Program-made: the position numbers and the translations under genes
Assembly: GCA_965228875.1 (NCBI GenBank)
Contig: OZ245843.1
Span: 726,616-790,615 of the forward strand
Source of the DNA: Thalassobaculaceae bacterium
GTDB lineage: Bacteria; Pseudomonadota; Alphaproteobacteria; Thalassobaculales; Thalassobaculaceae
Reading direction: 5' to 3'
Length of the DNA: 64,000 bases
Notes under the pieces: generated by a model
Databases searched by the model: none
Seen by the model: the letters and a program-made list of their open reading frames with translations, nothing else
Told to the model about the DNA's origin: nothing
In this document: positions 30,802-59,852 of the stretch, piece by piece
How positions within the stretch are numbered: position 1 is the stretch's first letter
Layout of the letters: every line of letters starts with the position of its first letter

Positions 30802-30863
30802 CCGTCTGACGGCCGGGTTCCGCCGGACCGACAGCGGCAAAACACAGCGAGAAGGAGGGAACG

Positions 30864-31760: not shown

Positions 31761-31769
31761 AGCGCGATC

Positions 31770-31794
31770 GGCTCAGATCGAATAGATCTGAGCC
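31770..31794. terminator. Hairpin between convergent genes (GGCTCAGATC-N5-GATCTGAGCC)
   Basis: Perfect 10-bp inverted repeat; no clear U tract. Confidence 0.55.
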
Positions 31795-31821
31795 ATGAAT
31801 CTCGCTCGAAGCCATTCCGCT

Positions 31822-32448: not shown

Positions 32449-32478
32449 GTCCTTCTCCCTCGAGGCGATCGGCGGGGC

Positions 32479-33174: not shown

Positions 33175-33657
33175 GGTCCCCACCTCCATTTTCCAACAAT
33201 AGTAGAGTAAGGGAACGGCCGGGTCCTGTCTTTCGCTAATGGATGGTTCCCAGTGTGCTGTCGGATGCTGCGCCTGGGCAAAGGCGACGGACGGACGCAG
33301 ATGACCGTCGACGAACCCGGCCTATCGGTGTCGACCGACTGGCCTACGGGTGACGGTCGCCGTCAGCAGACCGGCGGTTGCCAGCAGGGTGATGGTCAAC
33401 CGCTCGACCCGCAACCCGACGGCCCGTGCCTGCGTCGGGCTAAGGGTGAGGTGCCCCGGCTGACGGGCCAGAGAGGCCATGGAGTGGGGGAGGCGGTCAG
33501 CGGCACTGTCGGTAAGCGAAAACGAGCCACAATACCAGGGCGTGGGTGGCGCGTTCAGCCGAAGGAAGTCACGATACCGGCCAACCAACGCGCTACCCGC
33601 TCGCCGTCGGAGCAGGGGGCTGAAACGTGGGTCGCCGGGCGACCGAAGGGGGAAGAC

Positions 33658-34797: not shown

Positions 34798-36054
34798 ATG
34801 ATCTTGAAGAGTTTGAAGGCCGCGACTGCGGCCGCTCTGTTGCTGGCGGGCGGGAGCGCGTGGGCGGCGGAGCCGTTGAAGGTGGGGGTTTTGGCAACCC
34901 TCGAAGGCACCTACACCGTGCTCGGCGAGGATGGTGTGCGCGGACTGAAGACCGCGCTGAACGTCATGGGCAACACCGGCGGCGGCCGTGAGGTCGAACT
35001 GATCATCGGGGCCACCGATGCAAGCCCGGACAGTGCCGTGCGCGCCGCTCGCAAGCTGGTCGAGCAGGACAAGGTCGATATCATCATCGGCCCGCTCTCG
35101 GGTTCCGAGGGCATCGCAATCCGCGACTACTCGAAGACCCAGCCCCAGGTGACCTTCCTGAACGGCATCTCAGGTGCGCAGGAAACCACCTACGTCACGC
35201 CGTCAGAGAACTTCTTCCGCTTCAACATGGACGGCGCCCAGTGGTCGGCCGGACTCGGCGACTACGTCTACAACGAGAAGGGCTACGAGACCGTCGCCAC
35301 GATCGGCGAGGACTACTCGTTCATCTACACCCAGGTGTTCGGCTTCGTCACCGAGTTCTGCGCCGCCGGCGGCGAGGTCACGGACCGGTTCTGGGTGCCT
35401 CTGGGGACCAAGGATTTCGGCTCGATCATCGCCTCCCTGCCGGATGACGTGGACGCGATCTATCTCGGGCTTGGCGGCGGCGACGCCGTTAACTTCCTGA
35501 ACCAGTATCAGCAGGCCGGCGGCGACGCCAACCTGATCGGCGGCACCATCATGGTCGACGGCACGGTGCTGAACTCCAAGGGCGACGCCAAGCGGGCGCT
35601 CATCGGAACGCCGTCCGCCGGACCGCAGGCCGACACCTGGGACGATCCGAAGTGGCAGGCCTACGTGAAGGCGTATCAGGACTCGTTCCCGCCGGATCAG
35701 CGTTTCCCGAGCCCGTCACTGCTGGGGACCGGTTACTACAACGCCACCACCGCGGCGTTGACCTGCATGAACGAGATCGGCGGCGACCTGTCCGACGGCC
35801 ACAAGGCGTTCCGCCAGTGCCTGACCAACCTCGAGCTCGACGCCCCCAACGGCAAGATCGTGCTGGACAAGAACCGCCAGGCGATCGGCACAAACTTCGT
35901 CTCCGAGGTGGTCGAACTGGCCGACGGGACCCTGGCCAACCAGCTGGTCTCCATCAAGGAGAACGTCAATCAGACGCTCGGAATCGACGAAGCCAGCTTC
36001 GCCGCGATCGGCCTGCCGAGCCGGGACAACCCCGAGTGCAAGGCGACCTACTAG
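34798..36054 (+). CDS. Liv-type ABC transporter substrate-binding protein
   Basis: Signal peptide, LKVGVL, ARKLVEQDKVDIIIGPLSGS, NFFRF. Confidence 0.92.
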   Translation: MILKSLKAATAAALLLAGGSAWAAEPLKVGVLATLEGTYTVLGEDGVRGLKTALNVMGNTGGGREVELIIGATDASPDSAVRAARKLVEQDKVDIIIGPLSGSEGIAIRDYSKTQPQVTFLNGISGAQETTYVTPSENFFRFNMDGAQWSAGLGDYVYNEKGYETVATIGEDYSFIYTQVFGFVTEFCAAGGEVTDRFWVPLGTKDFGSIIASLPDDVDAIYLGLGGGDAVNFLNQYQQAGGDANLIGGTIMVDGTVLNSKGDAKRALIGTPSAGPQADTWDDPKWQAYVKAYQDSFPPDQRFPSPSLLGTGYYNATTAALTCMNEIGGDLSDGHKAFRQCLTNLELDAPNGKIVLDKNRQAIGTNFVSEVVELADGTLANQLVSIKENVNQTLGIDEASFAAIGLPSRDNPECKATY

Positions 36055-36269: not shown

Positions 36270-37400
36270 ATGACCCTGATCACCTACCTCAACCGGGTGC
36301 ACTTCGCCGACGGGGTCCTCGAAGAGGCCCTGCGCTCGGAACTCGAACTGAACCGCCGTCGCCGGCCGCTGATCATCGCCGAGAGCGACCACGTCTCGGG
36401 CGCGCTGGCGGACCGGTTCTTCGCCAGTTTCCCGATCCGCACCTCGGCTGAATCCTTCGTCGAGGTGCCGGCCCTGCCGACCGAGGCGGCGGCGATCCGC
36501 ATCGCCGAACGCTACCGCGAGACGGAGCGCGACCATCTCGTCGCCTTCGGGGGCAACCGGGCGATCGACCTCGCCAAGGTGGCCCGCATCGCCATCGCCT
36601 TCGATGAGCCCATGGCGGCGCTGTCCTCGACCGAGGGCGGCACCCAGCGGATCGGCAACGGCCTCCCTGACCTCTACGCGGTACCCGGGATCTCGGGCTT
36701 CGCGTCGGCGATCAGTCACTATGCCCGGGTAAAGGTCGATGACGGCCGCCAGGTCCTGATCACCTCCCGGCACCTGATACCGACGGTTACGATCTGCGAC
36801 CCGACCCTGACTCTCGGCAGCAGCCCGGCCGACAGTTCCAGCGCCGCGTCGGGATCGATCTCGCGTGGGGTCGAATCCTACTTGTCACGGGGGTACAACC
36901 CGCCGGCCGACGGGCTGGCGCTCGACGGCCTGTCGCGGACCGCGCGGTTCCTGTCGCGCGCCGTCATGGACGACGACCTGGAGGCCCGGCGCGAAATGAT
37001 GGCGGGCAGCTTCAACAGCGCCCTGGCTCTTCAGAAAGGCGTTTGCGCGGTCCACGCCATCACCAACGCGCTGGCCTCGGTCTCGCAGGTGGTGGTCGAC
37101 CCGAGCGCGGTCGGTCGGCTGATCGTTCCGCACCTGATCCGGTACTACGGCACCCGGGTCGAGACCAAGCTGCCGGCCCTGCGGTCGGCGCTGGGGCTCG
37201 GCGTGGGTGCCGACATCTCCGACGCCATCGCCGAGCTTCTGGGCGGCCTGCCGCTCCCGAACTCCCTCGGCGAGATGGGCCTCGGAGACGCGGAGATCGC
37301 CGCCGCGTCGGCGGTCGCCAGCCAGGACCGCGCCATCGGCAACAGCCCGCACAGGCTGGACGCGGCCAGCATCGGGACGATCCTGCACGCGGTCCGGTGA
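36270..37400 (+). CDS. Iron-containing alcohol dehydrogenase family protein with degenerate metal site
   Basis: GGNRAIDLAK, ICDPTLTLG, NPPADGLALDG, ALQKG..VH. Confidence 0.82.
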   Translation: MTLITYLNRVHFADGVLEEALRSELELNRRRRPLIIAESDHVSGALADRFFASFPIRTSAESFVEVPALPTEAAAIRIAERYRETERDHLVAFGGNRAIDLAKVARIAIAFDEPMAALSSTEGGTQRIGNGLPDLYAVPGISGFASAISHYARVKVDDGRQVLITSRHLIPTVTICDPTLTLGSSPADSSSAASGSISRGVESYLSRGYNPPADGLALDGLSRTARFLSRAVMDDDLEARREMMAGSFNSALALQKGVCAVHAITNALASVSQVVVDPSAVGRLIVPHLIRYYGTRVETKLPALRSALGLGVGADISDAIAELLGGLPLPNSLGEMGLGDAEIAAASAVASQDRAIGNSPHRLDAASIGTILHAVR

Positions 37401-37553: not shown

Positions 37554-38381
37554 ATGAGCGGCGCTATTTCCGTGCATCACGGCGATTTCGGCCGTGCGGC
37601 TCTGTATGAGCTGGACCGGCCGATCATTACGCATGCCCATCGGGAAGGCCATCTGATCTTCCACATCGACGGGTGCCACGGCAACGTCATCGTCGGCGAC
37701 CGCCGGTATGCGGCCGATCGCAACCAAGCCGTCGCGGTTTCGCCATGGGAGCCACACAGCTTCGAGCCGTCGATACCGGGTGAGGCCTGCCTGTGCCTCG
37801 TACTCTACATCAAGCCGATGTGGTTCCTCGAGGCCAGCCAGTCGGCGGAGTTCGCGTTGAGCTTCGGGCGGTCGACGGTGGAAATGACCGCGAGCGTCCG
37901 ACGCTGGGCGACCCGGTTGACGTCGCTCCTTCTGGACAACCAGGCCTCGGTGCGCTTCGACGGGTTCCTGTTCGAAACCACGCGGCTCTGTTTCGACGAG
38001 TCATGGTCCGGGCTGGACACCAGCCCGTTCCTGCGCAGCCGCAGTGTCCGCTTCAACGATTATCGGGTCCGACGCGCCCTCCGTCTGATGCAGGAGGCGT
38101 TCTCGGAGGATGTGGAGATCGACCATCTGGCGCGGGATGTCGGCCTGTCGCGACCGCATTTTTACAAGCTCTTCAAGATGCAGATGGGCATTCCGCCCAA
38201 CATCTTCCTCAACACCCTACGCACCGAGCAGGCGATCGACGACCTGATGGGGACCCGGAAGTCGGTGACCGATATCGGTTTCGATCTCGGCTTCTCCTCG
38301 CAGGCGAGCTTCACCCGGTTCTTCGCCTCCCATGTCGGAATTCCGCCGACGGAATACCGTCGCGTCGCCCACTTCGCCTGA
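37554..38381 (+). CDS. AraC family transcriptional regulator
   Basis: Cupin HAHREGH; LSRPHFYKLFK...IGFDLGFSSQASFTRFF..GIPPTEYR. Confidence 0.95.
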   Translation: MSGAISVHHGDFGRAALYELDRPIITHAHREGHLIFHIDGCHGNVIVGDRRYAADRNQAVAVSPWEPHSFEPSIPGEACLCLVLYIKPMWFLEASQSAEFALSFGRSTVEMTASVRRWATRLTSLLLDNQASVRFDGFLFETTRLCFDESWSGLDTSPFLRSRSVRFNDYRVRRALRLMQEAFSEDVEIDHLARDVGLSRPHFYKLFKMQMGIPPNIFLNTLRTEQAIDDLMGTRKSVTDIGFDLGFSSQASFTRFFASHVGIPPTEYRRVAHFA

Positions 38382-38615
38382 CGTCGGCGCCCGAGTGTTT
38401 TGGCGATGGCGGGCCAACGCAGAAGACTGCGAGGTACGCCCGATCTGCCACTGATCCGTACCCTCGTTCGAGACGACCGGCCCGCAGAGGTCGGCGAGGG
38501 AGGATGCTGACACCATGCGCCGACTGCCGGGTACACGTGTGGCCGGGCCAAGGGCCGAAGGCTGGGAGCCCCCGGTGGCCGGGACGACTCCACGGTCTGC
38601 GGGGAGTGGGGTGTG

Positions 38616-39629
38616 ATGCGCGCGTTCGCCAGCCGCCATCCGGTCTGGTCGGTCGTCGTCGTCATCGTGGCGGCGGTGCTGCTCTGGCTGATTTTCGCCG
38701 TCTGGCCTAAGGGTCTGGTCGAACTGATCGGGCGCAAGAAGATCTTCCTGAACGCCCTGTTCAACGGCATCACCCTCGGCGGGCTCTACTTCCTGGTCGC
38801 GAGCGGCTTCACCCTGATCTTCGGGCTCATGCGGAACGTCAACCTGGCGCATGGCTCGCTGTACCTGCTGGGCGGCTATGTCGGCTACGTCTTCGCCGAG
38901 TGGACCGGGTACTGGTTGTTGGCCTTCCCGGCGGCGTTCCTGGTCGTCGGTTTCTTCGGCATCCTGCTGCAGCTCTTCGTGTTCCGCCGCATGGAGGGGC
39001 AGGACCTGCGCCAGACGCTGGTGACGATCGGCATCTCCATCGTGATGGCCGACCTGATGCTGTGGATCTGGGGCGGCGACTTCTACAACATCGGCGCGCC
39101 GAGCTGGCTCAGCGGGCCGATGGAGACGTTCCTCGTGACCGGCGTAAAGCGGTCGTCCGGCGATCTCATCTTTCTGAAATATCCGATGGTCCGGATCGTG
39201 ATCTTCGCGGCCTCCGTGGTGGTCGGCGTCGGCATGTGGCTCCTCCTGACGCGCACCCGGGTCGGCATGCTCATCCGCGCCGGGGTCGACGACCGTGAGA
39301 TGCTGTCGGCCACCGGCGCGCGTATCCAGCTGGTCTTTCTCGGCGTCTTCGCCTTTGGCGCCGGGCTGGCCGGTGTGGCCGGCGTGGTCGGCGGAACGTT
39401 CCAGTCGGTGGCGCCGGGCGAGGACATCCGCTTCCTGTTGGCGTCCCTGGTGGTGGTGATCGTCGGCGGCATGGGGTCGATCCCCGGTGCTGCGGTCGGC
39501 GCCCTGCTGATCGGCATGGCCGAGCAGTTCGGGTCCGTCTACTTCCCGACCTACGCGGTGGTCCTGACCTTCCTGATCATGGTGCTCGTCCTGGCGTTCA
39601 AGCCCCAGGGCCTGATGGGGAGGGCGTGA
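38616..39629 (+). CDS. LivH-like ABC permease
   Basis: GFTLIFGLMRNVNLAHG, VVIVGGMGSIPGA, KPQGLMG. Confidence 0.93.
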   Translation: MRAFASRHPVWSVVVVIVAAVLLWLIFAVWPKGLVELIGRKKIFLNALFNGITLGGLYFLVASGFTLIFGLMRNVNLAHGSLYLLGGYVGYVFAEWTGYWLLAFPAAFLVVGFFGILLQLFVFRRMEGQDLRQTLVTIGISIVMADLMLWIWGGDFYNIGAPSWLSGPMETFLVTGVKRSSGDLIFLKYPMVRIVIFAASVVVGVGMWLLLTRTRVGMLIRAGVDDREMLSATGARIQLVFLGVFAFGAGLAGVAGVVGGTFQSVAPGEDIRFLLASLVVVIVGGMGSIPGAAVGALLIGMAEQFGSVYFPTYAVVLTFLIMVLVLAFKPQGLMGRA

Positions 39630-40696
39630 TGGCGGTCTCCGGCGTCACCGGCGGATCGGGCTCCAGGCCGGTTCAGGCCTCGTTCTGGTGGGATCAGGCC
39701 TCGCCGGTCTACCTGGTGGTCGCTGCCGTCCTGCTGCTCATGCCGGCCTTCGCCAGCGATTTCGTCATCTACCAGCTCATGGGCTGGACCTTCATCCTCG
39801 GCATCATCGCCCTCAGCCTGACGTTCCTGGCGGGCTACGGCGGTATGGTCAGCCTGGTGCAGATGTCGGTCGCCGGCATGGCCGGGTACATGGTGGCGAT
39901 CTTCGGCGACAGCGCCATCGCCACCATCAGCCAGGGATGGCCCTGGTACGTGTCGATCCCGCTGGCGCTGATCGTCGCCGTCATCTTCGGCACCCTGGCG
40001 GGCTGGCTCGCGGTCCGCACCGAGGGCATCTACACGATCATGATCACGCTCGCGATCGCGGCGGCGTTCTTCTACTTCACCCGCCAGAACTACGTGATCT
40101 TCAACGGCTTCTCCGGATTCAACGGCGTCCTGCCGCCGCAGCTCTTCGGGGTCGACTGGCGCGGGCCCTCCGCCTTCTACTATCTGACCCTGTTCTGGGC
40201 GACCGTCAGCTACTTCGCGGTCCTGTACATCTCGCGGGCGCCCTTCGGTCTGGCGCTGCAGGGGGTGCGCGACAACCCGCGCCGGATGGCCGCGCTCGGC
40301 TTCAACGTCACGGCGCATCGGGTCGCGGCCTATGCCTTCGCGGCCCTGCTCGCCGCGGTCGGCGGCATTCTGCTGACCTGGCAGTCGGCCCAGATCTCGC
40401 CGGGTACCGCCGGTATCGGGCCGGTGATCGATGTCCTCGTGATCGCCGTGATCGGCGGTCTGCGACATCCGATCGGGCCCTTCATCGGCGCCCTGATCTA
40501 TGTGCTGCTGAAGACCTTCGCGCTCGACGCGCTGGTCGCACTCGGCCTCGGCGGCGAGCGGTTCCAACTGCTGATCGGGGTCGGTTTCCTGGCGATCGTC
40601 TTCTATTCCCCCGACGGGGTGCTCGGGCTCTGGGAACGGCTGAAGGCGTCCCGCGCCCGCGATCCGCTGCGCCAGCGGCAGGGAGGGGCGGAATGA
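39629..40696 (+). CDS. LivM-like ABC permease
   Basis: GYGGMVSL, GIYTIMITLA, GVRDNPRRMAALG, PDGVLG. Confidence 0.93.
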   Translation: MAVSGVTGGSGSRPVQASFWWDQASPVYLVVAAVLLLMPAFASDFVIYQLMGWTFILGIIALSLTFLAGYGGMVSLVQMSVAGMAGYMVAIFGDSAIATISQGWPWYVSIPLALIVAVIFGTLAGWLAVRTEGIYTIMITLAIAAAFFYFTRQNYVIFNGFSGFNGVLPPQLFGVDWRGPSAFYYLTLFWATVSYFAVLYISRAPFGLALQGVRDNPRRMAALGFNVTAHRVAAYAFAALLAAVGGILLTWQSAQISPGTAGIGPVIDVLVIAVIGGLRHPIGPFIGALIYVLLKTFALDALVALGLGGERFQLLIGVGFLAIVFYSPDGVLGLWERLKASRARDPLRQRQGGAE

Positions 40697-41496
40697 GACC
40701 CGCCGTACCCGCCTCTGCCTCGGTTTCCGAACGGCTCTCGGCCACCGGCACCGCCAACGCCCTGGAACTGCGGGGGGTGTCCAAGCTGTTCGGCGCGCTG
40801 GCCGCGCTCGAGGACATCAACCTGACGGTTCGGCCGGGCGAGCGGCGCGCCGTCCTCGGCTCCAACGGCGCCGGCAAGACCACCCTGTTCAACTGCGTGA
40901 CCGGCGACTTCCCGGCGACCACCGGGACGATCCGCTTCTTCGGCGAGGACATCTCCGCCTTTCCGGCCCACGAGCGCATCCGCCGCGGGCTGCGCCGGAC
41001 CTACCAGATCTCGCAGCTCTTCGAAGGGCTGAGCGTGGTCGACAACGTCTATCTGGCCTGCCGGGGCGTGTCCCGCGGCCGCTTCTCGTTCCTGCGGCCG
41101 CGGCGGGACGACGCGCTCATGGCGAGTGCCGACAACCTGGTGCGCGTGGTGCACCTGGAGGAGGCGCGGGATCTGAGGGTCTCCACCTTGTCCCACGGTC
41201 AGCAGCGCCAGCTGGAGATCGCCATGGCGCTTGCCGGCGCGCCGCGCTTCATCCTGTTCGACGAACCGGCCGCCGGCCTCAGCCCGACCGAACGCCGCGA
41301 TCTGGTGGAGATCCTCACCGGCCTGCCCGGACATATGGGGTTCATCGTGATCGAGCACGACATGGACGTCGCGCTGCGTGTCGCGGAGAGCGTGACGATG
41401 ATGCACAACGGCCGGGTCTTCAAGGAGGGGCGGCCGGCCGAGATCGAGGACGATCCCGAGGTTCAGGCGCTCTACCTGGGGGGTGGCGATGCCTGA
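40693..41496 (+). CDS. LivG-like ABC ATP-binding protein
   Basis: [34 protein letters not shown]. Confidence 0.94.
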
Positions 41497-43663
41497 CGCC
41501 ACGACCCCCGTTCTCTCGGTCCACGACCTCAACGTCTATTACGGTCAGAGCCACGCGCTGCAGGGGATCGACCTCGAGCTCGGCGCCGGCGTGCTTTCGG
41601 TCGTCGGGCGCAACGGCATGGGCAAGACGACGCTCTGCAACGCCATCATGGGGCTGACCCCGGTCTCCTCCGGCACCATTTCCGTCGCCGGCCGGAACGT
41701 CGTCGGCGCGAGCCCGGCGGAGATCGCGAACCTGGGCGTCGGGTACGTGCCCCAAGGCCGCCGCCTGTGGCGATCGCTGAGCGTCGACGAACATCTGCGG
41801 CTGGTGGCGCGGCGCGGCGGCGCCTGGACGCCGGAGCGGATCTACGCGACCTTCCCGCGGCTCGCCGAGCGGCGCGGCAACGGCGGCGGCCAGCTCTCCG
41901 GCGGCGAGCAGCAGATGCTGGCGATCTCGCGCGCCCTGCTGCTGAACCCGCGTCTGCTGGTGATGGACGAGCCGACAGAAGGCTTGGCGCCGGTCATCGT
42001 CCAGCAGGTCGAGGAGATGCTGCTCCGTCTCGGCCGCGAGGGCGACATCAGCGTCCTGGTGATCGAGCAGAACATCGGTGTCGCCTGCGCGGTGTCGGAA
42101 CGGGTCGCGATCATGGTGAACGGGCGGATCGCCCGGGTCATGGATGCGGGGGTCCTGGCGGCGGACCGTGACCTGCAGCAGGCGCTGCTTGGCGTCGGGC
42201 GCCATGCCCATGACGAGACGCCGGACAGCCCGGCGCCGCGCGCGTCGCACGAGGCCGCCCCCCGAACCGGAACCTCGGTCACCCGGATCTACCTCTCGAA
42301 CCCGAAGGTGCCCACACGCTGGAGCGCGCCGGTGCCGGTGCGGGTGATCGAGGGCGCGGCCCGAACCACGACGGCGCCGGCCGCTGCATCGGCCGACCGG
42401 GTCGTGACGCCGCTTCGGGCCCGGCGCTCTGGCGGTGGCGGCGCGATCCTGGTGGCCGGCACGCTCGACACCAAGGGGCCGGAACTCCGGCTAATGCGCG
42501 ACGTCCTCAAGGCACGGGGGCTGACGGTGCGGATGGTCGACCTGTCGACGTCGGGCAAGCCCTCCGGCGCCGACGTTCCGCCGCACGCGGTCGCCGCGTT
42601 CCATCCGCGCGGCGTCGCCGGGGTGATAACGGGCGACCGTGGCACCGCCGTCGCCGGAATGACACTGGCGTTCGAGCGCTGGATCCGGGCGCAGGAGGAT
42701 GTGGCCGGCGTCGTATCGGCGGGCGGTTCCGGCGGCACCGCGCTGGTGGCGCCGGCAATGCGCTCGCTGCCGGTCGGCGTGCCGAAGGTGATCGTCTCAA
42801 CCGTCGCCAGCGGCAATGTCGGCCAGTATATCGGCCCGTCCGACATTCTGATGCTGCATTCGGTCGCCGACGTGCAGGGCATCAACTCGATCACCCGTCA
42901 GGTGCTTACCAACGGCGCCGCCGCGCTGGCCGGCATGGTCGAGGCGCGCCGGGCGGAGCAGGCGCGGGGCGACGACAAGCCCGCCGTCGGCCTGACCATG
43001 TTCGGCGTCACCACTCCCTGCGTGCAGCAGGTGGTCGCGCGCCTGCGGGACGATTTCGACTGCCTCGTGTTCCACGCCACCGGAACCGGCGGGCGGGCGA
43101 TGGAGAAGCTGATGGACAGCGGCATGCTGTCTGCGATCCTCGACCTGACCACCACCGAGGTCTGCGACATGGTCGCCGGCGGGGTGTTCGCCGCCGACGA
43201 GGACCGCTTCGGCGCGTCGATCCGTTCCGGCCTGCCGTATATCGGAGCGTGCGGCGCCCTCGACATGGTGAACTTCAACGCGCCGGAGACGGTGCCCGAG
43301 CGGTATCGCGGCCGCCGGCTCTACGAGCACAACCCGCAGATCACCCTGATGCGGACCTCGGTCGAGGAGAACGACCGGATGGGGCGCTGGATCGGCGAGC
43401 GGCTGAACCGCATGACCGGCCCGGTCCGCTTCTTCCTGCCGGAGGGCGGCGTGTCGGCCCTGGACGCGCCGGGAGCGCCGTTCTGGGATCCGGAGGCCGA
43501 CCGCGCGCTCTTCGCCGCCCTGGAGGCGACGGTGCGCCAGACGTCCGCGCGCCAGCTGATCCGGGTTCCGCACAACATCAACGCCGTCGAGTTCAGCGAT
43601 CTCGTCGTGCAGACGTTCCGGAGCCTGCACGCCAGCCGGCTCCATCTGGCCAGCGGGGGATAA
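41489..43663 (+). CDS. LivF-like ABC ATPase fused to Tm-1-like (UPF0261) domain
   Basis: [25 protein letters not shown]; then [41 protein letters not shown]. Confidence 0.9.
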
Positions 43664-43666
43664 GCC

Positions 43667-44494
43667 ATGTTCGAGCGAAGCGAGTTGCTGACCAGGTACC
43701 GCGCCATGATCGCGCGCGGCGAGCCGATCATCGGCGGCGGCGCCGGCACCGGCCTCAGCGCGAAGTGCGAGGAGGCGGGCGGGATCGACCTGATCGTGAT
43801 CTACAATTCAGGCCGTTACCGCATGGCCGGACGCGGGTCTCTCGCCGGCCTGATGCCCTATGGCGACGCGAATGCCGTCGTAATGGAGATGGCCGCCGAG
43901 GTGCTGCCCGTCGTCAGGCGCACGCCGGTTCTGGCGGGCGTCTGCGCCTCCGATCCGTTCCGCCTGATGGACAGGTTCCTCGACCAGATCAGGGCGGCCG
44001 GGTTCTCCGGCGTCCAGAACTTTCCCACCGTCGGCCTGATCGACGGGACGTTCCGGGCCAATCTGGAGGAGACCGGCATGTCCTACAGCCTGGAGGTGGA
44101 CATGGTCCGCATGGCCCGCGCCAAGGACATGCTGACCACGCCCTATGTCTTCTGCGCCGAGGACGCCCGGGCGATGGCCGAGGCCGGCGCGGACATCATC
44201 GTCTGCCACCTGGGCCTGACGACCGGCGGCAGCATCGGGGCGGAGACCGCACTCACCCTGGAGCAATGCCCGGCACTGGTCGACGCCTGGGCGGCGGCAG
44301 CCCTCGAGGTCAATCCGGAAGCCATCGTGCTGGTCCATGGCGGCCCGGTGGCGATGCCCGAGGACGCGGCCTACGTGCTCGCCAACACCACGCACTGTCA
44401 CGGTTTCTACGGCGCCTCCTCGATGGAGCGGCTGCCGACGGAAGTCGCGCTGACGGAGCAAACCAGGAAATTCAAAGCGATCGGTCGCGGCTGA
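43667..44494 (+). CDS. TIM-barrel signal transduction / PEP-hydrolase family protein (Tm-1 C-terminal-like)
   Basis: [62 protein letters not shown]. Confidence 0.9.
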
Positions 44495-47721: not shown

Positions 47722-48159
47722 ATGGCGCGTGTCTACGTCTCGTCGGTGATCGACGCCCCCGCCGCGCGGGTCTGGGAGCGGGTCAGGGACTTCAACGGCC
47801 TTCCGCGCTGGCACCCGCGGATCCGCGACAGCCGGATCGAGGACGCCCTGCCGTCGGACAAGGTCGGCTGCATCCGCAACTTCAACCTGCAGAACGGGGA
47901 CAACATCCGCGAGCAGCTGCTGGGGTTGAGCGACTACGACCTGTTCTGCACCTACGCGATCCTGGAGAGCCCGATGCCGCTGACCGACTACGTCGCGACG
48001 CTGCGCCTGACGCCCGTGACCGAGGGCGACCGCTGCTTCATCGAATGGTCGGCCGAGTTCTCCTGCGATCCCGCCGACGAGGACGGCCTGGTCGCCGGGA
48101 TCGGCGGCAACGTGTTTCAGGGCGGGTTCGACGCCCTGAAGCGGCATTTCGGAGGCTGA
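47722..48159 (+). CDS. SRPBCC (START-like) family protein
   Basis: SVIDAPAARVWERVRDFNGLPRWHP, VGCIR. Confidence 0.9.
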   Translation: MARVYVSSVIDAPAARVWERVRDFNGLPRWHPRIRDSRIEDALPSDKVGCIRNFNLQNGDNIREQLLGLSDYDLFCTYAILESPMPLTDYVATLRLTPVTEGDRCFIEWSAEFSCDPADEDGLVAGIGGNVFQGGFDALKRHFGG

Positions 48160-48162
48160 GCG

Positions 48163-48621
48163 ATGCCGAGGGTCAGGCGCAGCACGGTCCTGGACGCGCC
48201 GGTGGAGGCGGTCTGGGACGTCCTGCGCGACTTCAACGGCCACGACCGCTGGCATCCCGCCGTTGCCGAGAGCGCAGTCGAGCGCGGCCGGTCCTCCGAC
48301 CAGGTCGGTTGCGTGCGGCGGTTCCGGCTGCAGGACGGCGCGGAACTGCGCGAACAGCTGCTGACCCTGTCCGATCTGGAACAGGCATTCTCCTACTGCC
48401 TGCTCGACACGCCGGTCCCGCTCTTCAACTACGTCGCCCATGTCAGGCTGTTCCCCGTGACCGACGGCGACCGGACGTTCTGGGAATGGGAGAGCCGGTT
48501 CGACACGCCGGCGGGCCGCGATGAGGAACTGGCGGCGATGGTGGGCAACGACATCTATGGCGCCGGGTTCGATGCGATCCGCGCGCATATGGGGCTGGAG
48601 GCGAGCGGTGCTGAGGGTTGA
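48163..48621 (+). CDS. SRPBCC family protein, paralog of the preceding gene
   Basis: VLDAPVEAVWDVLRDFNGHDRWHP, VGCVR, REQLL.LSD shared with neighbour. Confidence 0.9.
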   Translation: MPRVRRSTVLDAPVEAVWDVLRDFNGHDRWHPAVAESAVERGRSSDQVGCVRRFRLQDGAELREQLLTLSDLEQAFSYCLLDTPVPLFNYVAHVRLFPVTDGDRTFWEWESRFDTPAGRDEELAAMVGNDIYGAGFDAIRAHMGLEASGAEG

Positions 48622-49411
48622 AACCTGTCGGACGATCCAGGAGGCGGCCGGAGCGATGGGTACGCGCTCGCGCTTTCTCGGCGGTGGAACGCTGGTGATG
48701 CGCGCCGTTAACGACGGCGACCAGGGTTTCGACCACATCGTGCGGACAACCGATCCGGCCCTGAGGGAGGTCCGCGTCGACGGATCGCGGATCCGGATCG
48801 GCGCCGGGTGCACGATGGCCGATGTCATTGCCTCCCGCGATCTCGGGTTTCTTGCGCCGGCGGCGCGGCTCGTGGGCGGGCCGGCGGTGCGCAACATGGC
48901 GACGGTCGGCGGCAACCTGTTCGCCCCGCATCCCTATGGCGATCTGACGGCGGCGCTGCTGGCGCTCGACGGCGTGGCGCATATGGCCGACGGCCGCGAG
49001 CAGGGGATCGACGCCCTGCTCGGTGCCCGCGAGCGCCCCTCCGGACTGGTGGCGGCGGTGTCGGTGGCGCGACCGCAGGACGGGGAGTTCCGGTTCCGCA
49101 AGGTCAGCCGGGTGAAGCCGAAGGGGGTGTCCGTGATGTCGATCGCGGCGCGGCTGCCGCGCTCGGCAGGGCGGGTCTCCGGGGCCCGGGTCGCCTTCGG
49201 GGCGATGGGGCCGACACCGCTGCGCGCGCCGGCGGTGGAGCGGGCGCTGGAGGGGGCGGCGCTGGATGCGTCCGGCATCGCTGCGGCGCTGGCAGCGGTC
49301 GGGGGCGCCCTGTCGCCGGCGGACGATGCGATCGCGTCGGCCTGGTATCGCCGGGAGGTTGCGGCGGTCCATCTCGGCCGATTGCTGCTCGACGACGGGA
49401 GGGGGCGATGA
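48608..49411 (+). CDS. Molybdenum hydroxylase FAD-binding subunit
   Basis: LGGGTL, VRNMATVGGNL, ASAWYRR. Confidence 0.9.
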   Translation: MLRVETCRTIQEAAGAMGTRSRFLGGGTLVMRAVNDGDQGFDHIVRTTDPALREVRVDGSRIRIGAGCTMADVIASRDLGFLAPAARLVGGPAVRNMATVGGNLFAPHPYGDLTAALLALDGVAHMADGREQGIDALLGARERPSGLVAAVSVARPQDGEFRFRKVSRVKPKGVSVMSIAARLPRSAGRVSGARVAFGAMGPTPLRAPAVERALEGAALDASGIAAALAAVGGALSPADDAIASAWYRREVAAVHLGRLLLDDGRGR

Positions 49412-49890
49412 CCAAGGTTCCGGTGCGGTTCACCCTGAACGGGGCCGAGACCGGCGTGTTCGCCGATCCGGGCGCCAACCTGCTGGATGTGCTGCGGCGG
49501 GGCGCCGGGGACCTCTCGCCCAAATACGGCTGCGGCCAGGGCACCTGCGGCGCGTGCACGGTGCTGATCGACGGGGACGCGCATCTGTCCTGTCTCACGC
49601 TGGCGGAGTCCGCCGAGGGGCGTCGCATCGACACCACCGGCGGCCTGCGTCTCGGCGCGGATCTGCACCCGCTGCAGCGCCGGTTCATGGAAGGGTTCGC
49701 CGCCCAGTGCGGCTACTGCACACCGGGCATGCTGATGGCGGCCAAGGCCCTGCTCGACAGGGAGCCGAACCCGTCGCGCGAGCAGGTGATCGAGGCGATC
49801 TCCGGTAATCTGTGCCGGTGTACCGGATACGAGCCCATTGTCGACGCGATCCTGGCCGCCGCCGGCGATCTGCGGGGGAGGGTGGCCTGA
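49408..49890 (+). CDS. Molybdenum hydroxylase 2x[2Fe-2S] subunit
   Basis: GCGQGTCGACTV, QCGYCTPG, GNLCRCTGY. Confidence 0.95.
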   Translation: MTKVPVRFTLNGAETGVFADPGANLLDVLRRGAGDLSPKYGCGQGTCGACTVLIDGDAHLSCLTLAESAEGRRIDTTGGLRLGADLHPLQRRFMEGFAAQCGYCTPGMLMAAKALLDREPNPSREQVIEAISGNLCRCTGYEPIVDAILAAAGDLRGRVA

Positions 49891-51776
49891 TGTCTTCCGT
49901 GGAGTTCCGCAAGGACCTGTTCGCCAACGAACGGCGCGACGACCTGAACGAGATCGGCAAGCCGACGATCCGCCAGGACATCCTGGGCCACGTCACCGGC
50001 GCGACGAAGTACTACGACGACCACCTGTTCGACGGCCTGCTGCACATGCGCTGCGTGCGGTCGCCGCATCACCATGCCCGCATCCGGCATGTCGACACCT
50101 CGGCGGCGGAACGGATGGAGGGGGTGGTGCGCATCGTCCGCCCGACCGACGTGCCGCGCAACCTCAACACCCTGCTGTCGCTGATCGGTTTCGGCCGCGA
50201 CGACGAGGAACTGCTGGCGACGGCGAAGGTCGCCTATGCGGGCGAACCGGTGGTGGCCGTGATCGCGACCTCGGACCGTCTGGCGCGCGACGCGGCCGCG
50301 GCGGTGCGCGTCGACTGGGAGGTGCTGCCCCACGTGCTGGACGTCGAGGAGGCGCTCAAGCCCGACGCGCCTGTGGTCAACGACGTCTACCCGAACAACA
50401 CCTTCGACTATCACGACCGTTACGATCACCAGAAGCTGCGGTTCGGCGATGTCGAGGCCGCGTTCGCCCGGGCCGACCACATCGTCGAGGGGACCTACCA
50501 GATGTCCCCGATCGAGCAGGCGCCGATGGAGACCTGCGGCGCCATCGCCGCTCCGGAGACCAACGACCGCTTCATCTGTCACACCGCGACCCAGGCCCTG
50601 TTCTTCTCGCTCGGCACCACGGCGAAGCTGCTCGACATGGCGTCGTCGCGGCTGCACTTCGTTGGCGGCACGGTGGGCGGCGGCTTCGGCGGCAAGGTCG
50701 ACAGTCTGGTGGAGCCGATGGCGGTGCTCGGCGCGATCCTGACCGGCCGGCCGGTCAAGTTCATGTGGGACCGCCCGGAGGAGATGCAGGTCGGCGCGCC
50801 GCGCGGCGCCGAGCGCTGGCGGCTGAAGGACGGGGTGATGGCCGATGGCCGCATCGTCGCCCGCAGCCTCACCGGCTTCTTCGACGCCGGCGCCTACACC
50901 CGCCTGTCCTCCTACGCGATCATCAAGGCGACCGGTCACCTGCCGGGGCCGTACACGATCCCGAATGTCGCCTCCAACGTGTTCTGCGTGTTCACCAACC
51001 GCACCCCGGCGACCGCCATGCGTGGCTTCGGCATCACCGGCGTCGACTTCGCCATCGAGTGCCACATGGACAAGGTCGCCGAGACCATCGGCCTGAACCC
51101 GATCGACCTGCGGATCCTGAATGCCTACCGGGACGGCGACATGAAGGCGCACCGGCGCGTCGCCAAGAACACCGCGCTGATCGAGTGCTGCCAGGTGGCG
51201 GCGCAGAAGGCCGGGGTGACCCTGCGACCGGACTCGATGCAGGCCTCCAGCCTGGTCGGCGGCGGCGTCGGCGAGCGGGCGCAGATCCCGGAGACGGTGA
51301 CAGACCAGATGTCACGGATCGGCGAGCGCCGGCGGTCCGAACTGCCGACCGATCCGCTCGTGGGCGCGCACGACAAGGGCAGGGTGGCGGCCGGGGTGAT
51401 GGGGACGCCGATCGCCGCCGCCGAGCCGCAACGCGAGGACATGCGGATCGAGGCGTCCAGGGTCGGTCACGCGGTATCCGGTCCGAGCCCGGCTCCGGCA
51501 TCCCCCGCGCCCACTCCTGCGATACCGCCAGCCGCCGCCCCCGTGACCCCGCGGGCGGTGCCAACTGCAGCGCCCGCGGCTTCCATCTCCCCGGTTCCTC
51601 CGCAACCCGCACCCCCGCAGGGTACACCTGCGCAGGCTGCGCCTCCGCAACCTGCACCTCCGCAACCTGCTGCGACGCCGCCGGCGGCAGCGCCCTACCA
51701 ACCCGAGAAGCCGTTCCAGCAGGGTGTGCGCCGGCCCGGCGTCTCGCGGTTCCTGTCCGGCACGCGGAGGCGCTGA
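49890..51776 (+). CDS. Molybdopterin-binding subunit, N-terminal half, with Pro/Ala-rich tail
   Basis: VTGATKYYDD, RSPHHHARI, VGGGFGGK, DAGAY, AMRGFG. Confidence 0.92.
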   Translation: MSSVEFRKDLFANERRDDLNEIGKPTIRQDILGHVTGATKYYDDHLFDGLLHMRCVRSPHHHARIRHVDTSAAERMEGVVRIVRPTDVPRNLNTLLSLIGFGRDDEELLATAKVAYAGEPVVAVIATSDRLARDAAAAVRVDWEVLPHVLDVEEALKPDAPVVNDVYPNNTFDYHDRYDHQKLRFGDVEAAFARADHIVEGTYQMSPIEQAPMETCGAIAAPETNDRFICHTATQALFFSLGTTAKLLDMASSRLHFVGGTVGGGFGGKVDSLVEPMAVLGAILTGRPVKFMWDRPEEMQVGAPRGAERWRLKDGVMADGRIVARSLTGFFDAGAYTRLSSYAIIKATGHLPGPYTIPNVASNVFCVFTNRTPATAMRGFGITGVDFAIECHMDKVAETIGLNPIDLRILNAYRDGDMKAHRRVAKNTALIECCQVAAQKAGVTLRPDSMQASSLVGGGVGERAQIPETVTDQMSRIGERRRSELPTDPLVGAHDKGRVAAGVMGTPIAAAEPQREDMRIEASRVGHAVSGPSPAPASPAPTPAIPPAAAPVTPRAVPTAAPAASISPVPPQPAPPQGTPAQAAPPQPAPPQPAATPPAAAPYQPEKPFQQGVRRPGVSRFLSGTRRR

Positions 51777-51777
51777 G

Positions 51778-52800
51778 ATGGCCGTACACACCGGGCGCGG
51801 CTTCGCCTGCATCAACTATCCCATCGGCATGAACCTGGGCGGCGACCCGAGCCAGGCCCTGGTGCATTCGACCCCGGACGGCAAGTTCATGGTCACGCTG
51901 AGCGCCATCGATCTCGGTCAGGGCATGAAGTCTGTCACCCGCCAGATCGCCGCCGAGGCGCTCGGCGTGCCGATCGCCGACGTCTATGTCGACACCGCGG
52001 ACAGCGATACCGGGGCCCACGACATGGGCAGCTTCGCCTCGCGCGGCACCCACAGGGTCGGCAATGCGGTGATCCGCGCGGCGACCGAGGCGCGCAACCA
52101 GATGCTTGAGGCGGCGGCCGAGGAGCTTGAGGTCGATCCGGGCGACCTGGAGACAGACGGGGCGGGCAACATCCATGTGCGCGGTGCGCCGGGACGATCG
52201 ATCACGGTCGCCGAAACCGCCATCGCCGCCCAGTTCAAGCAGGGACGGACCTTGTCCGGTCGCGGCATCTTCCTGATCCCGCCGGGCGAGGCCGATCCCG
52301 AGACTGGCGAGATGACGCCGGTGACCTGCTTCGCCCACGCCGCCCTCGTGGTGTCGGTCGAGGTCGACGACGAGACCGGTGAGGTCGCCGTCACCAAGAT
52401 CGATTCCGCCTACGAGGTGGGCCGCGCGTTGAACCCGAAACTGGTGGAACAGCAGCTCATCGGTGGCGCCTGGATGGGGGTCAGCCACGCGCTGTTCGAG
52501 ACCACGGAGCCCTATTACCCGGACCGCTCCCATGGGCCGGTCGACTTCAACGGCTACCTCATGCCGGGGCCGGGTCAGATCGTCCCCCACGACATCGCCA
52601 TACTGGAGCGTCCGGCGGAGGATGCGCCGTTCGGCGGCAAGGGGCCGGGGGAGATGTGCGCCAATCCTGTCCTGCCGGCGATCGCCAACGCGGTCTACGA
52701 CGCGGTCGGCGTGCGCTGCGACAGCCTGCCGATCACGCCGGAAAAAGTGCTCCGCGGTATCCGCGCCAACGGTGGCGCCCGGCGTCGGGGCGCGCTCTGA
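51778..52800 (+). CDS. Molybdopterin-binding subunit, C-terminal half
   Basis: DLGQG, GSFASRGT, VEVDDETGEV, LNP..VEQQL.GG, GKGPGE, AIANAVYDAVG, LPITPEKVL. Confidence 0.92.
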   Translation: MAVHTGRGFACINYPIGMNLGGDPSQALVHSTPDGKFMVTLSAIDLGQGMKSVTRQIAAEALGVPIADVYVDTADSDTGAHDMGSFASRGTHRVGNAVIRAATEARNQMLEAAAEELEVDPGDLETDGAGNIHVRGAPGRSITVAETAIAAQFKQGRTLSGRGIFLIPPGEADPETGEMTPVTCFAHAALVVSVEVDDETGEVAVTKIDSAYEVGRALNPKLVEQQLIGGAWMGVSHALFETTEPYYPDRSHGPVDFNGYLMPGPGQIVPHDIAILERPAEDAPFGGKGPGEMCANPVLPAIANAVYDAVGVRCDSLPITPEKVLRGIRANGGARRRGAL

Positions 52801-53681
52801 TGGCAGTGCGGGCGACAATCGGTGGTATCGGGTCCCCCGACGCCCTGCGCTCGGCGCTGGCCGGGGCCCAGTATCTCGCGGATGACGGCCTGGCGACGGC
52901 AGCCTACCTGGCGCTGGCGCTGGGCAAGCCGCTGCTGCTGGAGGGGGCGCCGGGAGTCGGCAAGACGGAGGCGGCCAAGGCGATTGGCGCCGTGCTGTCC
53001 CGCCATGTGATCCGGCTCCAGTGCTACGAGGGGATCGACGCCGCGGCCGCGCTCTACGAGTGGAACTATCCGCGCCAGATGCTGGCGATCCGCCAGGCCG
53101 GCGAGACCTACGTCAATATCTACGCCGACGAGTACCTGCTGGAGCGTCCGCTGCTCGCCGCCCTGCGCGCGCCGGAACAGAGTCTGCTGCTGATCGACGA
53201 GATCGACCGCTCCGACCAGGAGTTCGAGGCGTTCTTGCTTGAATTTCTGTCCGATTTCTCGATCTCCATCCCGGAGACCGGGACGATCCGCGCCGGCCGC
53301 CATCCGGTCGTGGTCCTGACCTCGAACCGGACCCGCGACCTGCACGAGGCCCTGCGCCGGCGCTGCGTCTATCACTGGATCGACTATCCCGATCCCTCGC
53401 TGGAAGCCGAGATCGTCATGGCGCGGGCAAGCTCGGTGGCGCGTGCGACGGCGGAGGCGGTGGTGGCGGCCGTCGGCCTGCTGCGCCAGGAACCTCTGGT
53501 GAAGCCCCCGGGCGTCGCCGAGACGGTGGAATGGGCGGAGGCCGCGACCCTGCTTCAGGCCCAGGGAAGCCGGTGGCCCGACGCATTCCGCCGTGCCATC
53601 GGCGTGGCAATCAAGGACCAGGACGACCTCACCTACATGGCGCCACGCCTCGACAGGGTGCTGCCGGGAGAGGCGGCATGA
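52800..53681 (+). CDS. MoxR AAA+ ATPase (CoxD-like)
   Basis: LLEGAPGVGKT, RLQCYEGID, LIDEIDR, LTSNRTRDLHEALRRRC. Confidence 0.93.
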   Translation: MAVRATIGGIGSPDALRSALAGAQYLADDGLATAAYLALALGKPLLLEGAPGVGKTEAAKAIGAVLSRHVIRLQCYEGIDAAAALYEWNYPRQMLAIRQAGETYVNIYADEYLLERPLLAALRAPEQSLLLIDEIDRSDQEFEAFLLEFLSDFSISIPETGTIRAGRHPVVVLTSNRTRDLHEALRRRCVYHWIDYPDPSLEAEIVMARASSVARATAEAVVAAVGLLRQEPLVKPPGVAETVEWAEAATLLQAQGSRWPDAFRRAIGVAIKDQDDLTYMAPRLDRVLPGEAA

Positions 53682-54778
53682 CGTTACCCGACGCCGCCAA
53701 ACCGTTCGTCGCGTTCCCGTCGGTGCTGAGAGCGCACGGCTTCGCCGTCGCGCCGGATCAGACCGTCGGCTTTCTGCAGGCAATCGGTCTCCTGGGGCCG
53801 CGCGACATGACCGATATCCGCCGCGCGGCGGTCGCCATGCTGGCGGTGCCGCGCGAGCGGGAGGATGAGTTCGACGCCTTGTTCCGCGCCTTCTTCCTCG
53901 GCCAGAGTCTGCCGGCGGCGCTGCCGGATCGCGAGGAGGAGGAGGTCGAGGCGCATGAGCCGGAAGGCGGCGTGTCGGAGGTCGAGGAGGGCGAGGACAT
54001 CTCCGACACCGGCGCGGAGGCGACCGCCGCGGAGCGTCTGTCCGCCCGTGCGCCGGGTCCGGGGACGGATATGGAGGCGCTCGACGGCTTCTGCCGGGCG
54101 GTGCCGCGCAGGCTTCCGAGGCGGCGCAGCTACCGGCTGGCGCCGAGCCGTCGGCGCGGCGTGCTCGATCTGCGACGTACCCTGCGCGAGGCGGCTCGGC
54201 GGGACGGCGAGGCGACGGTCCTGAAGACCCGTCGGCGCCGCGAGCGCCAGCGGCGGGTGGTTCTTCTGATCGACATCTCCGGTTCGATGAAGGATCGCAC
54301 CGACGATCGTCTTCGCTTTGCCCACGCGCTGGTCCGGGCCGGCGAACGGGTGGAGGTGTTCACACTCGGCACGCGCCTGACCCGCATCTCCGGAGAACTG
54401 CGGGTGCGCGATCCGGACCGCGCCATGGAGCGGGTCGGCCGGCTGGTAGCGGATTTCGACGGCGGCACGCGCATCGGCGAGGCGCTGCAGGCCTTTCTCG
54501 CCGTTCCCCGATATGCCGGATTCGCCCGTGGCGCCGTCGTCCTGGTGCTGTCGGATGGTCTGGAACGGGGCGGGCCTGAGGCGATGGTGGAGGCGATCAG
54601 GCGACTGTCGCGCCTGGCCTGGCGCCTGGACTGGCTGAGCCCGCTCGCCGACGACCCGGCCTACCGGCCGCAGACGTCGGCGTTGTCGGCGGTGCTGCCC
54701 TGGCTCGACGCGCTTGGCGACGGCGCCAGCCTCGCGGCGGTCTGCCGCCACGTTCTGACTCTTGGGAGACAGCGATGA
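53678..54778 (+). CDS. VWA-domain CoxE-like protein
   Basis: DLRRTLR, MIDAS DISGSM, GGTRIG, LSDGLERG. Confidence 0.92.
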   Translation: MTLPDAAKPFVAFPSVLRAHGFAVAPDQTVGFLQAIGLLGPRDMTDIRRAAVAMLAVPREREDEFDALFRAFFLGQSLPAALPDREEEEVEAHEPEGGVSEVEEGEDISDTGAEATAAERLSARAPGPGTDMEALDGFCRAVPRRLPRRRSYRLAPSRRRGVLDLRRTLREAARRDGEATVLKTRRRRERQRRVVLLIDISGSMKDRTDDRLRFAHALVRAGERVEVFTLGTRLTRISGELRVRDPDRAMERVGRLVADFDGGTRIGEALQAFLAVPRYAGFARGAVVLVLSDGLERGGPEAMVEAIRRLSRLAWRLDWLSPLADDPAYRPQTSALSAVLPWLDALGDGASLAAVCRHVLTLGRQR

Positions 54779-55650
54779 TCGATGCGCACCATCACATCTG
54801 GCGCCAGCGGGACCTGCCCTGGCTGCAGGGGGAGGAACAGCCGCGGATTTTCGGCTCCTACGCCTCGATCATGCGCGACTACCTGATCGACGAGTTCCGC
54901 GCCGACCTGGCGGGCACCGGCATCACCCGATCGGTCTACGTCCAGGCGAACTGGCCGCCGGCCGCCTATGTCGACGAGGCGGCCTGGGTCCAGTCGGTCG
55001 CCGACGCCACGGGCTGGCCCAACGCCATCGTCGGGTATGCCGATTTCACCGTGCCGGACGTGCGCCCCCAACTCGAGGCGCTGGCTGCCTTTCCCCGGAT
55101 GCGTGGTATCCGCCAGCAGTTCCATTGGCACGAAAAGCCTCTCTATCGCTTCGCGTCGCGTCCGGATCTAGCCACGGATCCGACGGTGCAGGCCAATGTG
55201 CGCCGGCTGGCGGAGTTCGGCTGGGTGTTCGATCTTCAGGTCTTCGCCGGGCAGATGGCGGGGGCGGCCGAACTCGCGCGGGCCTGTCCGGATGTCACCT
55301 TCGTCCTGCAGCACGCCGGGATGCTCGAGGACACCTCCGACGCCGGCCGGGCGGCGTGGCGTGCCGGAATGGAGGCGCTCGCCGCCTGCCCGAACGTGAA
55401 CACCAAGCTGTCGGCTTTCGGCACGTTCATCCACCGCAACGATCCTGCCTTCATCGCCGAGATGGTGGAGGCGACCGTCGCCCTGTTCGGGGCGGAGCGC
55501 TGCCTGTTCGGCTCCAACTTCCCGATCGAGAAGATATGGACGTCATACGGCGCGCTGTTCGCGGCGTTCCGGGACGCGACGGACGGGCTGCCGGCGGGCG
55601 ATCAGGCGGCGATCTTCGGACGCACGGCGGAACGGATCTACCGGATCTGA
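54775..55650 (+). CDS. Amidohydrolase_2 family lactonase-like hydrolase
   Basis: IDAHHHIW, SVYVQA, LQHAGM, KLS, FGSNFP. Confidence 0.88.
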   Translation: MIDAHHHIWRQRDLPWLQGEEQPRIFGSYASIMRDYLIDEFRADLAGTGITRSVYVQANWPPAAYVDEAAWVQSVADATGWPNAIVGYADFTVPDVRPQLEALAAFPRMRGIRQQFHWHEKPLYRFASRPDLATDPTVQANVRRLAEFGWVFDLQVFAGQMAGAAELARACPDVTFVLQHAGMLEDTSDAGRAAWRAGMEALAACPNVNTKLSAFGTFIHRNDPAFIAEMVEATVALFGAERCLFGSNFPIEKIWTSYGALFAAFRDATDGLPAGDQAAIFGRTAERIYRI

Positions 55651-55702
55651 GCAGAACACGGGGCTGCACCCCGGACCCACGACCTACGGCAGGGAGAGAG
55701 AC

Positions 55703-56551: not shown

Positions 56552-56581
56552 GCCGCCCGTCGCGCGCTGGAGGATTCAACC

Positions 56582-59797: not shown

Positions 59798-59852
59798 GTG
59801 CTGTCCTCCTGCTGACCGTCGGGTCCGGTGCGGCCTGAGACGATGATGCACC

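Follow-up and report, generated by a model that had tools for sequence, protein, structure and literature searches.

Tm-1 of tomato, a tobamovirus-resistance protein, consists of two domains joined in one chain. The subject here is a bacterial gene in which the first of these domains is fused to the ATPase of an importer, together with the adjacent gene for the second domain, both found in a window of 64,000 nucleotides (nt) from a Thalassobaculaceae bacterium (NCBI GenBank assembly GCA_965228875.1, contig OZ245843.1, positions 726,616 to 790,615 of the forward strand; coordinates below are those of the window). Nearly every land plant sequenced carries Tm-1L genes, whose normal role is still being sought. 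That the two domains, UPF0261 and the TIM barrel (TBST), arose in bacteria and co-evolve was published in 2016 (accessible text of PMC5028733). Compared with tomato Tm-1 and plant Tm-1L (PDB 3WRV-3WRY; PMC5028733), the window shares both domains, their order and the ATP lysine; in Tm-1L, however, the domains form one chain, whereas in the window a stop codon and a 3-nt gap lie between them and UPF0261 is joined to an ATP-binding cassette (ABC) ATPase. Likeness to Tm-1 implies no antiviral role for the window protein.

The first UPF0261 protein with a demonstrated activity is MarK (Saro_1862, PDB 9MPY), the multiple aromatic kinase of Novosphingobium aromaticivorans. According to the accessible text of PMC12624787, MarK is a homodimer that transfers phosphate from ATP to phenols and requires K16, the phenolic oxygen is held by G195 and H219 with stacking on H304, and the purified protein alone releases stable aryl phosphates. 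The first-pass annotation of the window, in which the family was given no assigned bacterial function, is outdated by this enzyme. MarK has in common with the fusion the UPF0261 fold, the ATP-site and G/H/H residues and a catabolic operon setting; unlike the window protein, it has neither the ABC ATPase fusion nor the pairing with a PF09370 barrel.

The fusion gene, whose product carries the wrong database label 'ABC transporter permease', is a single open reading frame (ORF) from an ATG at 41489 (alternative GTG at 41483) to a TAA at 43663, without internal stop and encoding 724 amino acids (aa). Pfam matches were obtained to ABC_tran at aa 25-163 (E 5.8e-24), to UPF0261 (PF06792) at aa 319-487 (E 1.2e-55, 188.6 bits against a cut-off of 27) and to UPF0261_C (PF23189) at aa 497-713 (E 2e-90, 302.3 bits, same cut-off). 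The ATPase has Walker A (GRNGMGKT, 40), Q-loop (86), signature (LSGGEQQ, 136), Walker B (LLVMDE, 156), D-loop (163) and switch (IEQN, 192), superposes on 1JI0 with a Foldseek TM(target) of 0.89, and qualifies as HAAT-type by this full motif set and an operon with LivG, LivH, LivM and a binding protein; its top NCBIfam transporter matches, UrtE (215.6, cut-off 285.8) and LivF (140.9, cut-off 441), are both under threshold. The linker spans aa 243-317 (75 aa; A13/P10/R10). Thus the elements first read from the letters alone, namely an intact LivF-type ATPase, a Pro/Ala/Arg linker of about 75 aa, a full UPF0261 domain in the same frame and a TIM-barrel gene starting 3 nt later, at 43667, were all recovered, with the addition that the linker contains a conserved block. 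This block, aa 265-293, is 79% identical among 113 close orthologues, level with the domains (78-82%), between flanking stretches of 17% and 25%, and its PTRW core is present in both of the cluster types described below. In the AlphaFold model (mean pLDDT 81, pTM 0.52) two independently folded domains are joined by a low-confidence linker, with pLDDT below 50 at aa 237-281 and 288-314.

The fusion is genuine and conserved. Contigs from all four public sequencing runs lying over the fusion showed no insertion or deletion; one from run X6 covers the whole 3.5 kb with 40 substitutions, and contigs from X6, X2 and X8 bridge the linker, so that at 42200-42450 no assembly error is indicated (contigs, not raw reads, were compared, and X2 may be the source sample). 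Among the 119 best homologues, 116 carry both PF00005 and UPF0261, the remaining three being 513-585 aa long, one of them labelled partial. Of 80 GTDB loci, 72 are fused, four are cut by a contig end, one is unclear and three hold a stand-alone UPF0261; both searches favour the fused clade because they were seeded with the window's fusion protein. In an even sample of 400 genomes of the class, a full-length match was found in 18, from 13 families, and only a partial match in 15; among 400 genomes of the phylum there were 13 full-length matches, besides a 748-aa fusion (G238) and a decayed one (G370). Named carriers include Roseibium, Ruegeria, Yoonia and the betaproteobacterial Variovorax. No match was found in three genomes of the same family, and the cluster is therefore patchy; the host genome has a single PF06792 gene and a single PF09370 gene. 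The early concern that orthologues might be split and unlinked to transporters is thus answered in two ways: the fusion is kept across the 13 families, but unfused pairs and secondary splits do exist. One such split leaves a trace at L053:9977-12181, where a stand-alone UPF0261 gene that retains part of the linker is accompanied by a barrel gene, with no Liv importer near. A quick tree (59 rows, midpoint-rooted, no clade test, three quarters of the fused GTDB loci dropped), in which the fused rows L082 and L101 fall among unfused rows on a long branch, is compatible with one origin of the fusion or two and cannot settle between them. In the open literature searched (subscription journals outside coverage) the fusion was not found described.

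The residues on which MarK depends are retained. By alignment, MarK D14, T15 and K16 correspond to D327, T328 and K329 of the fusion, the predicted ATP site, and G195, H219 and H304 to G506, H529 and H614, the predicted hydroxyl pocket; all 119 close homologues have D327, K329, G506, H529 and H614, and 118 have T328, and the MarK-equivalent residues dominate in the 115 diverse representatives of at least 380 aa among 150 listed. In Foldseek searches the UPF0261 domain matched Tm-1 (E 3e-41, 43% identity; TM(target) 0.84 with 3WRX) and MarK (E 5e-32, 32% identity). Judged from these comparisons, the domain is likely MarK-like in mechanism, with the mainstream Tm-1-type pocket described below.

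The surroundings of the fusion are conserved in the same manner. In the window the cluster is a same-strand run from the binding protein through three hydrolase genes, and in related genomes (three overlapping, related sets of fused loci whose flanks are long enough) LivG lies directly 5' of the fusion in 116 of 117 loci, the barrel directly 3' in 120 of 127, flotillin follows in 118 of 118 and 101 of 102 have SRPBCC; apart from the fusion, the importer has no close LivF. The barrel as partner and the linkage to the importer, both proposed at the outset, are borne out by this neighbourhood. Two cluster types were distinguished by the redox module: of the 102 loci, 59 have a molybdenum hydroxylase, 41 have an SRPBCC-quinone reductase, none has both and two have neither; the quinone-reductase type carries GntR, FAH, a PcaD-like (enol-lactonase-like) hydrolase and an amidohydrolase. 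The split molybdenum subunits of the window have nicotinate dehydrogenase 3HRD as their closest solved relative (E 1e-56 and 8e-42), with 4-hydroxybenzoyl-CoA reductase next; aerobic carbon monoxide (CO) dehydrogenase was rejected (CoxL TIGR02416, 160 and 96 bits against a cut-off of 991). Uptake of leucine, isoleucine and valine (LIV) or of urea was likewise rejected, all transporter subunits being under the NCBIfam cut-offs (the binding protein scores 54 and 40 bits where 493 and 477 are required). Several solved receptors that resemble the binding protein presumably bind benzoates. The ligands of binding proteins of this kind are often not LIV but hydrophobic acids, aromatic ones among them, as far as the accessible text of PMC3223731 goes, which backs the benzoate assignments only partly. 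Together, the neighbourhood, the below-cut-off transporter and the receptor literature point to catabolism of a ring compound.

The PF09370 match of the barrel (E 4.6e-131, 436 bits) is matched in structure by Mll9387 of Mesorhizobium loti (PDB 2P10; 62% identity, Z 37.3), a solved orthologue annotated as a putative phosphonopyruvate hydrolase, for which no supporting test was found; in its plasmid record the UPF0261 partner is unfused. The next fold is a barrel titled with a conserved phosphate-binding site (Z 19.1, root-mean-square deviation (rmsd) 3.9, 234 aligned), followed by phosphonopyruvate hydrolase (Z 16.3, rmsd 5.1, 233 aligned). Similarity to the phosphoenolpyruvate (PEP) mutase/isocitrate lyase group (TM about 0.55, 15-18% identity) is largely tied in Z with that to other phosphate-binding barrels, and the K-K-C-G-H loop of isocitrate lyase is absent from the sequence; in the ESM Atlas only the barrel's own family was found. 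Natural fusions of UPF0261 and barrel exist in either order (P0142, P0151, P0260), P0260 being a barrel-first fusion of 684 aa; in P0141 (626 aa) UPF0261 is fused to Cupin_5. Where an intact fusion lacks an adjacent barrel, a barrel gene was found elsewhere in four of four genomes tested, a pattern that is suggestive only, because those genomes also hold unfused UPF0261 copies; no barrel gene was found in the genome of G370, whose fused domain is stripped of every motif, and this genome is the single case that connects decay with barrel loss. In three of three loci tested by Pfam, a divergent PF09370 paralogue forms the N-terminal part of a sigma-54-type AAA/HTH_8 regulator encoded next to the cluster; the barrel fold therefore likely binds a pathway ligand. 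Such regulators, seen in L116 (818-3052, + strand), L136, L138, L140 and L141, converge on a degenerate 232-aa barrel gene (in L116 at 3074-3772, - strand), stand by clusters of the second type and probably sense the pathway ligand. Many invariant polar residues lost in the regulator copies (H181, H224, S48) are retained by the fusion-adjacent barrel.

A cluster of Bradyrhizobium diazoefficiens USDA110, bll3369-bll3387, equals in gene order and lengths the orthologous cluster of genome G056 (accessible text of PMC6201568 and PMC6759348). The G056/USDA110 pairs include 524 aa/1575 nt, 967 aa/2901 nt, 277 aa/834 nt and 736 aa/2217 nt, and the published bll3385 primers fall in the G056 LivH gene with 3 and 1 mismatches. 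Since bll3381 (834 nt) begins 3 nt after the end of bll3382 (2217 nt), as the barrel gene does after the fusion, we infer from order, lengths and primers that bll3382 is the fusion. All 19 genes are transcribed (71-278 reads per kilobase per million (RPKM), versus 12-17 in two upstream neighbours) and drop together 2- to 7.5-fold in a phaR mutant in tryptone-yeast medium (PMC6201568), and seven are up 2- to 5-fold without NasT (PMC6759348). In the accessible passages of these papers the cluster is described as a LIV transporter, CO dehydrogenase or polyketide cluster, and the fusion is not mentioned; polyketide synthesis was rejected, the label in PMC6201568 likely deriving from the Pfam name of SRPBCC. 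Unlike the window, the USDA110 cluster has no iron-dependent alcohol dehydrogenase (ADH)-like gene between binding protein and AraC.

The reading that is preferred here, with confidence a shade above even, is that the fusion is a small-molecule kinase tethered to an importer and that the barrel binds the phosphorylated product. A Liv-type importer with the fused ATPase would bring the compound in, and UPF0261 would phosphorylate its hydroxyl with ATP at the cytoplasmic face of the transporter. The compound is probably a flat ring, whether hydroxy-aromatic, hydroxy-heteroaromatic or enolic, and the barrel is predicted to bind and convert the product; in this genome, the likely later steps are that the molybdenum enzyme hydroxylates the ring and lactonase/amidase-type hydrolases open it. 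Kinase activity of the UPF0261 domain, by analogy with MarK, is considered quite probable, and the context makes it fairly likely that the substrate is the imported molecule and not a later intermediate; the same context suggests a hydroxylated ring as substrate and the barrel as acceptor of the phospho-product. That the Tm-1 domain pair serves metabolism, as first proposed, is judged likely. The logic of import, phosphorylation and then a barrel enzyme and a regulator that act on the phosphorylated compound is that of the Lsr system (LsrACDB importer, LsrK kinase, LsrR, LsrF barrel), which differs in its unrelated transporter subfamily, kinase fold and barrel, and in that LsrK is not fused to the ATPase.

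Several points weigh against this kinase reading. In MarK itself a distance of about 25 A separates the two sites, and the accessible text leaves the mechanism unexplained (PMC12624787). Its specificity residues F283, I285 and H348 are replaced by M593, N595 and L658 in 119 of 119 close homologues; these are the residues of Tm-1 and most of the UPF0261 family, and the substrate therefore differs from that of MarK. The domain scores 196 bits with MarK versus 332 with Tm-1, itself reported only as ATP-binding. The AlphaFold model has no fixed contact between ATPase and kinase domains (low pTM, disordered linker), the binding protein is only modestly like solved receptors (E 1e-39 to 1e-11), and the USDA110 RNA sequencing was termed a screening test by its authors in the accessible text. 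Fifteen of the 33 matching class genomes have no full-length fusion, and the pair works unfused too; within the fused clade it has separated from the ATPase on three or more occasions (L053, L066/L069, L099), and unfused pairs are often alone or adjoin other importer types. In L131, P0139, P0173 and P0231 the ATPase is intact and the fused UPF0261 decayed (L131:7656-9698, in G370, being a natural half-decayed fusion with a motif-less UPF0261), and in P0122 the ATPase is decayed and UPF0261 intact, so each half can persist without the other; a targeted search for a decayed locus like P0139 gave no full-length decayed copy. From the splits, unfused pairs and half-decayed proteins it follows that the tether is favoured, not obligatory. 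As to the pathway, acetovanillone degradation was rejected, pocket residues and neighbour genes differing from those of MarK, and the acvCDEF/hpeCBAD carboxylase-phosphatase families (including biotin carboxylase) were not among the Pfam matches of the 20 cluster genes, the rest of the genome lying outside the search.

Many of these observations would also fit a passive fusion, in which the UPF0261 kinase acts on a later cytoplasmic intermediate and was joined to LivF when adjacent operon genes merged long ago, with fixed expression ratios as the only effect. The long, variable, disordered linker, the repeated splits, one with a linker remnant (L053), the many unfused pairs and the decay of either half alone speak for it; retention of the fusion across 13 families of the class and in Variovorax, conservation of the linker motif to the same degree as the domains, and a separate adjacent orthologous LivF with intact UPF0261 at none of the 80 GTDB loci (five cut or unclear) speak against it, and it is considered unlikely, if a serious alternative. 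Improbable is a two-part ATP-dependent hydrolase, in which UPF0261 would transiently phosphorylate an enol, lactone or lactam oxygen and the bound barrel would cleave the ring with no free phospho-product. Such an enzyme would suit the fusion of the two domains in both orders, their co-evolution (PMC5028733), the resemblance of the barrel to PEP mutase/phosphonopyruvate hydrolase folds and the abundance of lactonase-like hydrolases in both cluster types, yet stable aryl phosphates are released by MarK alone (PMC12624787), and six of 24 sampled fused loci have no directly following barrel gene. At much the same low level, or a little below, stands a regulatory appendage: the domain would bind ATP and a pathway metabolite and tune the importer, and barrel and SRPBCC would be sensors, not enzymes. 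C-terminal regulatory domains are frequent on ABC ATPases, those of MetN and MalK mediating feedback inhibition of the importer; barrel paralogues act as regulator input domains, decayed UPF0261 domains remain fused in frame, and the barrel is without the isocitrate lyase loop. However, every residue of MarK catalytic type is invariant, the fusion-adjacent barrel keeps the polar residues that regulator copies lose, and the pair also occurs without a nearby transporter. That assembly error or a frameshift artefact united two genes is practically negligible, given independent contigs without indels, the 72 fused GTDB loci, the 116 two-domain homologues and bll3382, a 2217-nt gene in the matching position.

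A more elaborate form of the kinase reading, doubtful as a whole, is a membrane assembly for import and phosphorylation, that is, ABC-based group translocation of a plant- or alga-derived hydroxylated ring compound that plant Tm-1L, too, would have had as its ancestral substrate. Each LivFG importer would have one kinase protomer, and because UPF0261 is a homodimer in MarK, its dimerisation would bridge two importers; the always-adjacent flotillin might cluster importers with the barrel and SRPBCC carriers. The pocket residues of Tm-1L are identical to those of the fusion.

The fusion links a Tm-1-type pocket to an importer, and the binding protein of that importer is open to ligand screening; with the cluster expressed in the culturable, tractable B. 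diazoefficiens USDA110, the substrate question is therefore directly testable. An enzyme covalently joined to an importer ATPase is, to our knowledge, uncommon. The fusion is a new combination; the surprise is limited, since the component domains, the way they co-evolve and kinase activity within the family had been published before. If the kinase reading is true, it offers a context in which the everyday job of Tm-1-like proteins can be sought by experiment. Features of the window are collected in Table 1.

Table 1. Features of the fusion gene and its cluster (window coordinates)
Feature	Position	Strand	Basis
LivF/UrtE-type ABC ATPase fused to UPF0261 (Tm-1-like, MarK-family), 724 aa	41489..43663	+	ORF, Pfam, NCBIfam, AlphaFold
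ABC ATPase domain, aa 9-236, every catalytic motif intact	41513..42196	+	Pfam, motifs, Foldseek 1JI0
75-aa linker, mostly disordered	42215..42439	+	AlphaFold pLDDT, composition
Conserved linker motif, 29 aa	42281..42367	+	Orthologue alignments
UPF0261 N and C subdomains	42443..43627	+	Pfam, MarK alignment; residue roles from accessible text of PMC12624787
Periplasmic binding protein (Peripla_BP_6) of importer	34798..36054	+	Pfam, structure-match search
Iron-ADH-like protein, fast-evolving	36270..37400	+	Pfam, NCBIfam
AraC-family regulator	37554..38381	+	Pfam
LivH- and LivM-type permeases, two overlapping genes	38613..40696	+	ORFs, Pfam
LivG-type ATPase, motifs intact, overlaps fusion start	40693..41496	+	Pfam, motifs
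PF09370 TIM-barrel partner (TBST/PEP-hydrolase-like), 275 aa	43667..44494	+	Pfam, fold
Flotillin/SPFH protein, 1067 aa	44518..47721	+	Pfam
Two SRPBCC (Polyketide_cyc2) proteins	47722..48621	+	Pfam
Four-subunit molybdenum hydroxylase (flavin adenine dinucleotide (FAD), 2Fe-2S, split Mo subunits); FAD subunit start approximate	48617..52800	+	Pfam, NCBIfam, 3HRD
MoxR AAA ATPase and VWA (CoxE-like) pair	52797..54778	+	Pfam
Amidohydrolase_2, metallo-beta-lactamase-fold lactonase-like protein, SMP-30/isochorismatase fusion	54775..58237	+	Pfam, NCBIfam

A scan for promoters and terminators gave one promoter-like (0.8 expected) and five terminator-like signals (3.3 expected), which is chance level, and the first SRPBCC protein matched only its own family in the ESM Atlas. 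The iron-ADH-like gene, 26-71% identical to its counterparts versus 70-88% for its neighbours and missing from some clusters, is possibly non-catalytic. The first molybdenum subunit (49890-51776) has a Pro/Ala-rich tail of about 170 aa past the part that matches 3HRD, and a similar stretch joins the SMP-30 and isochorismatase domains at 56582-58237. A second Amidohydro_2 gene (33550-34485) lies 5' of the binding protein and is not at that position in 80 related loci. Further upstream, 28348-33189 holds a BTAD/TPR regulator, a PAP2-family protein and two ORFs without Pfam match (31822-32448, - strand; 32479-33189, + strand), the latter with a QxxxxWCWAA stretch that we take to be papain-like. 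At 58277-62030 (- strand), two long overlapping ORFs (527 and 725 aa) without Pfam match contain repeated similar segments and appear sulfotransferase-like by eye.

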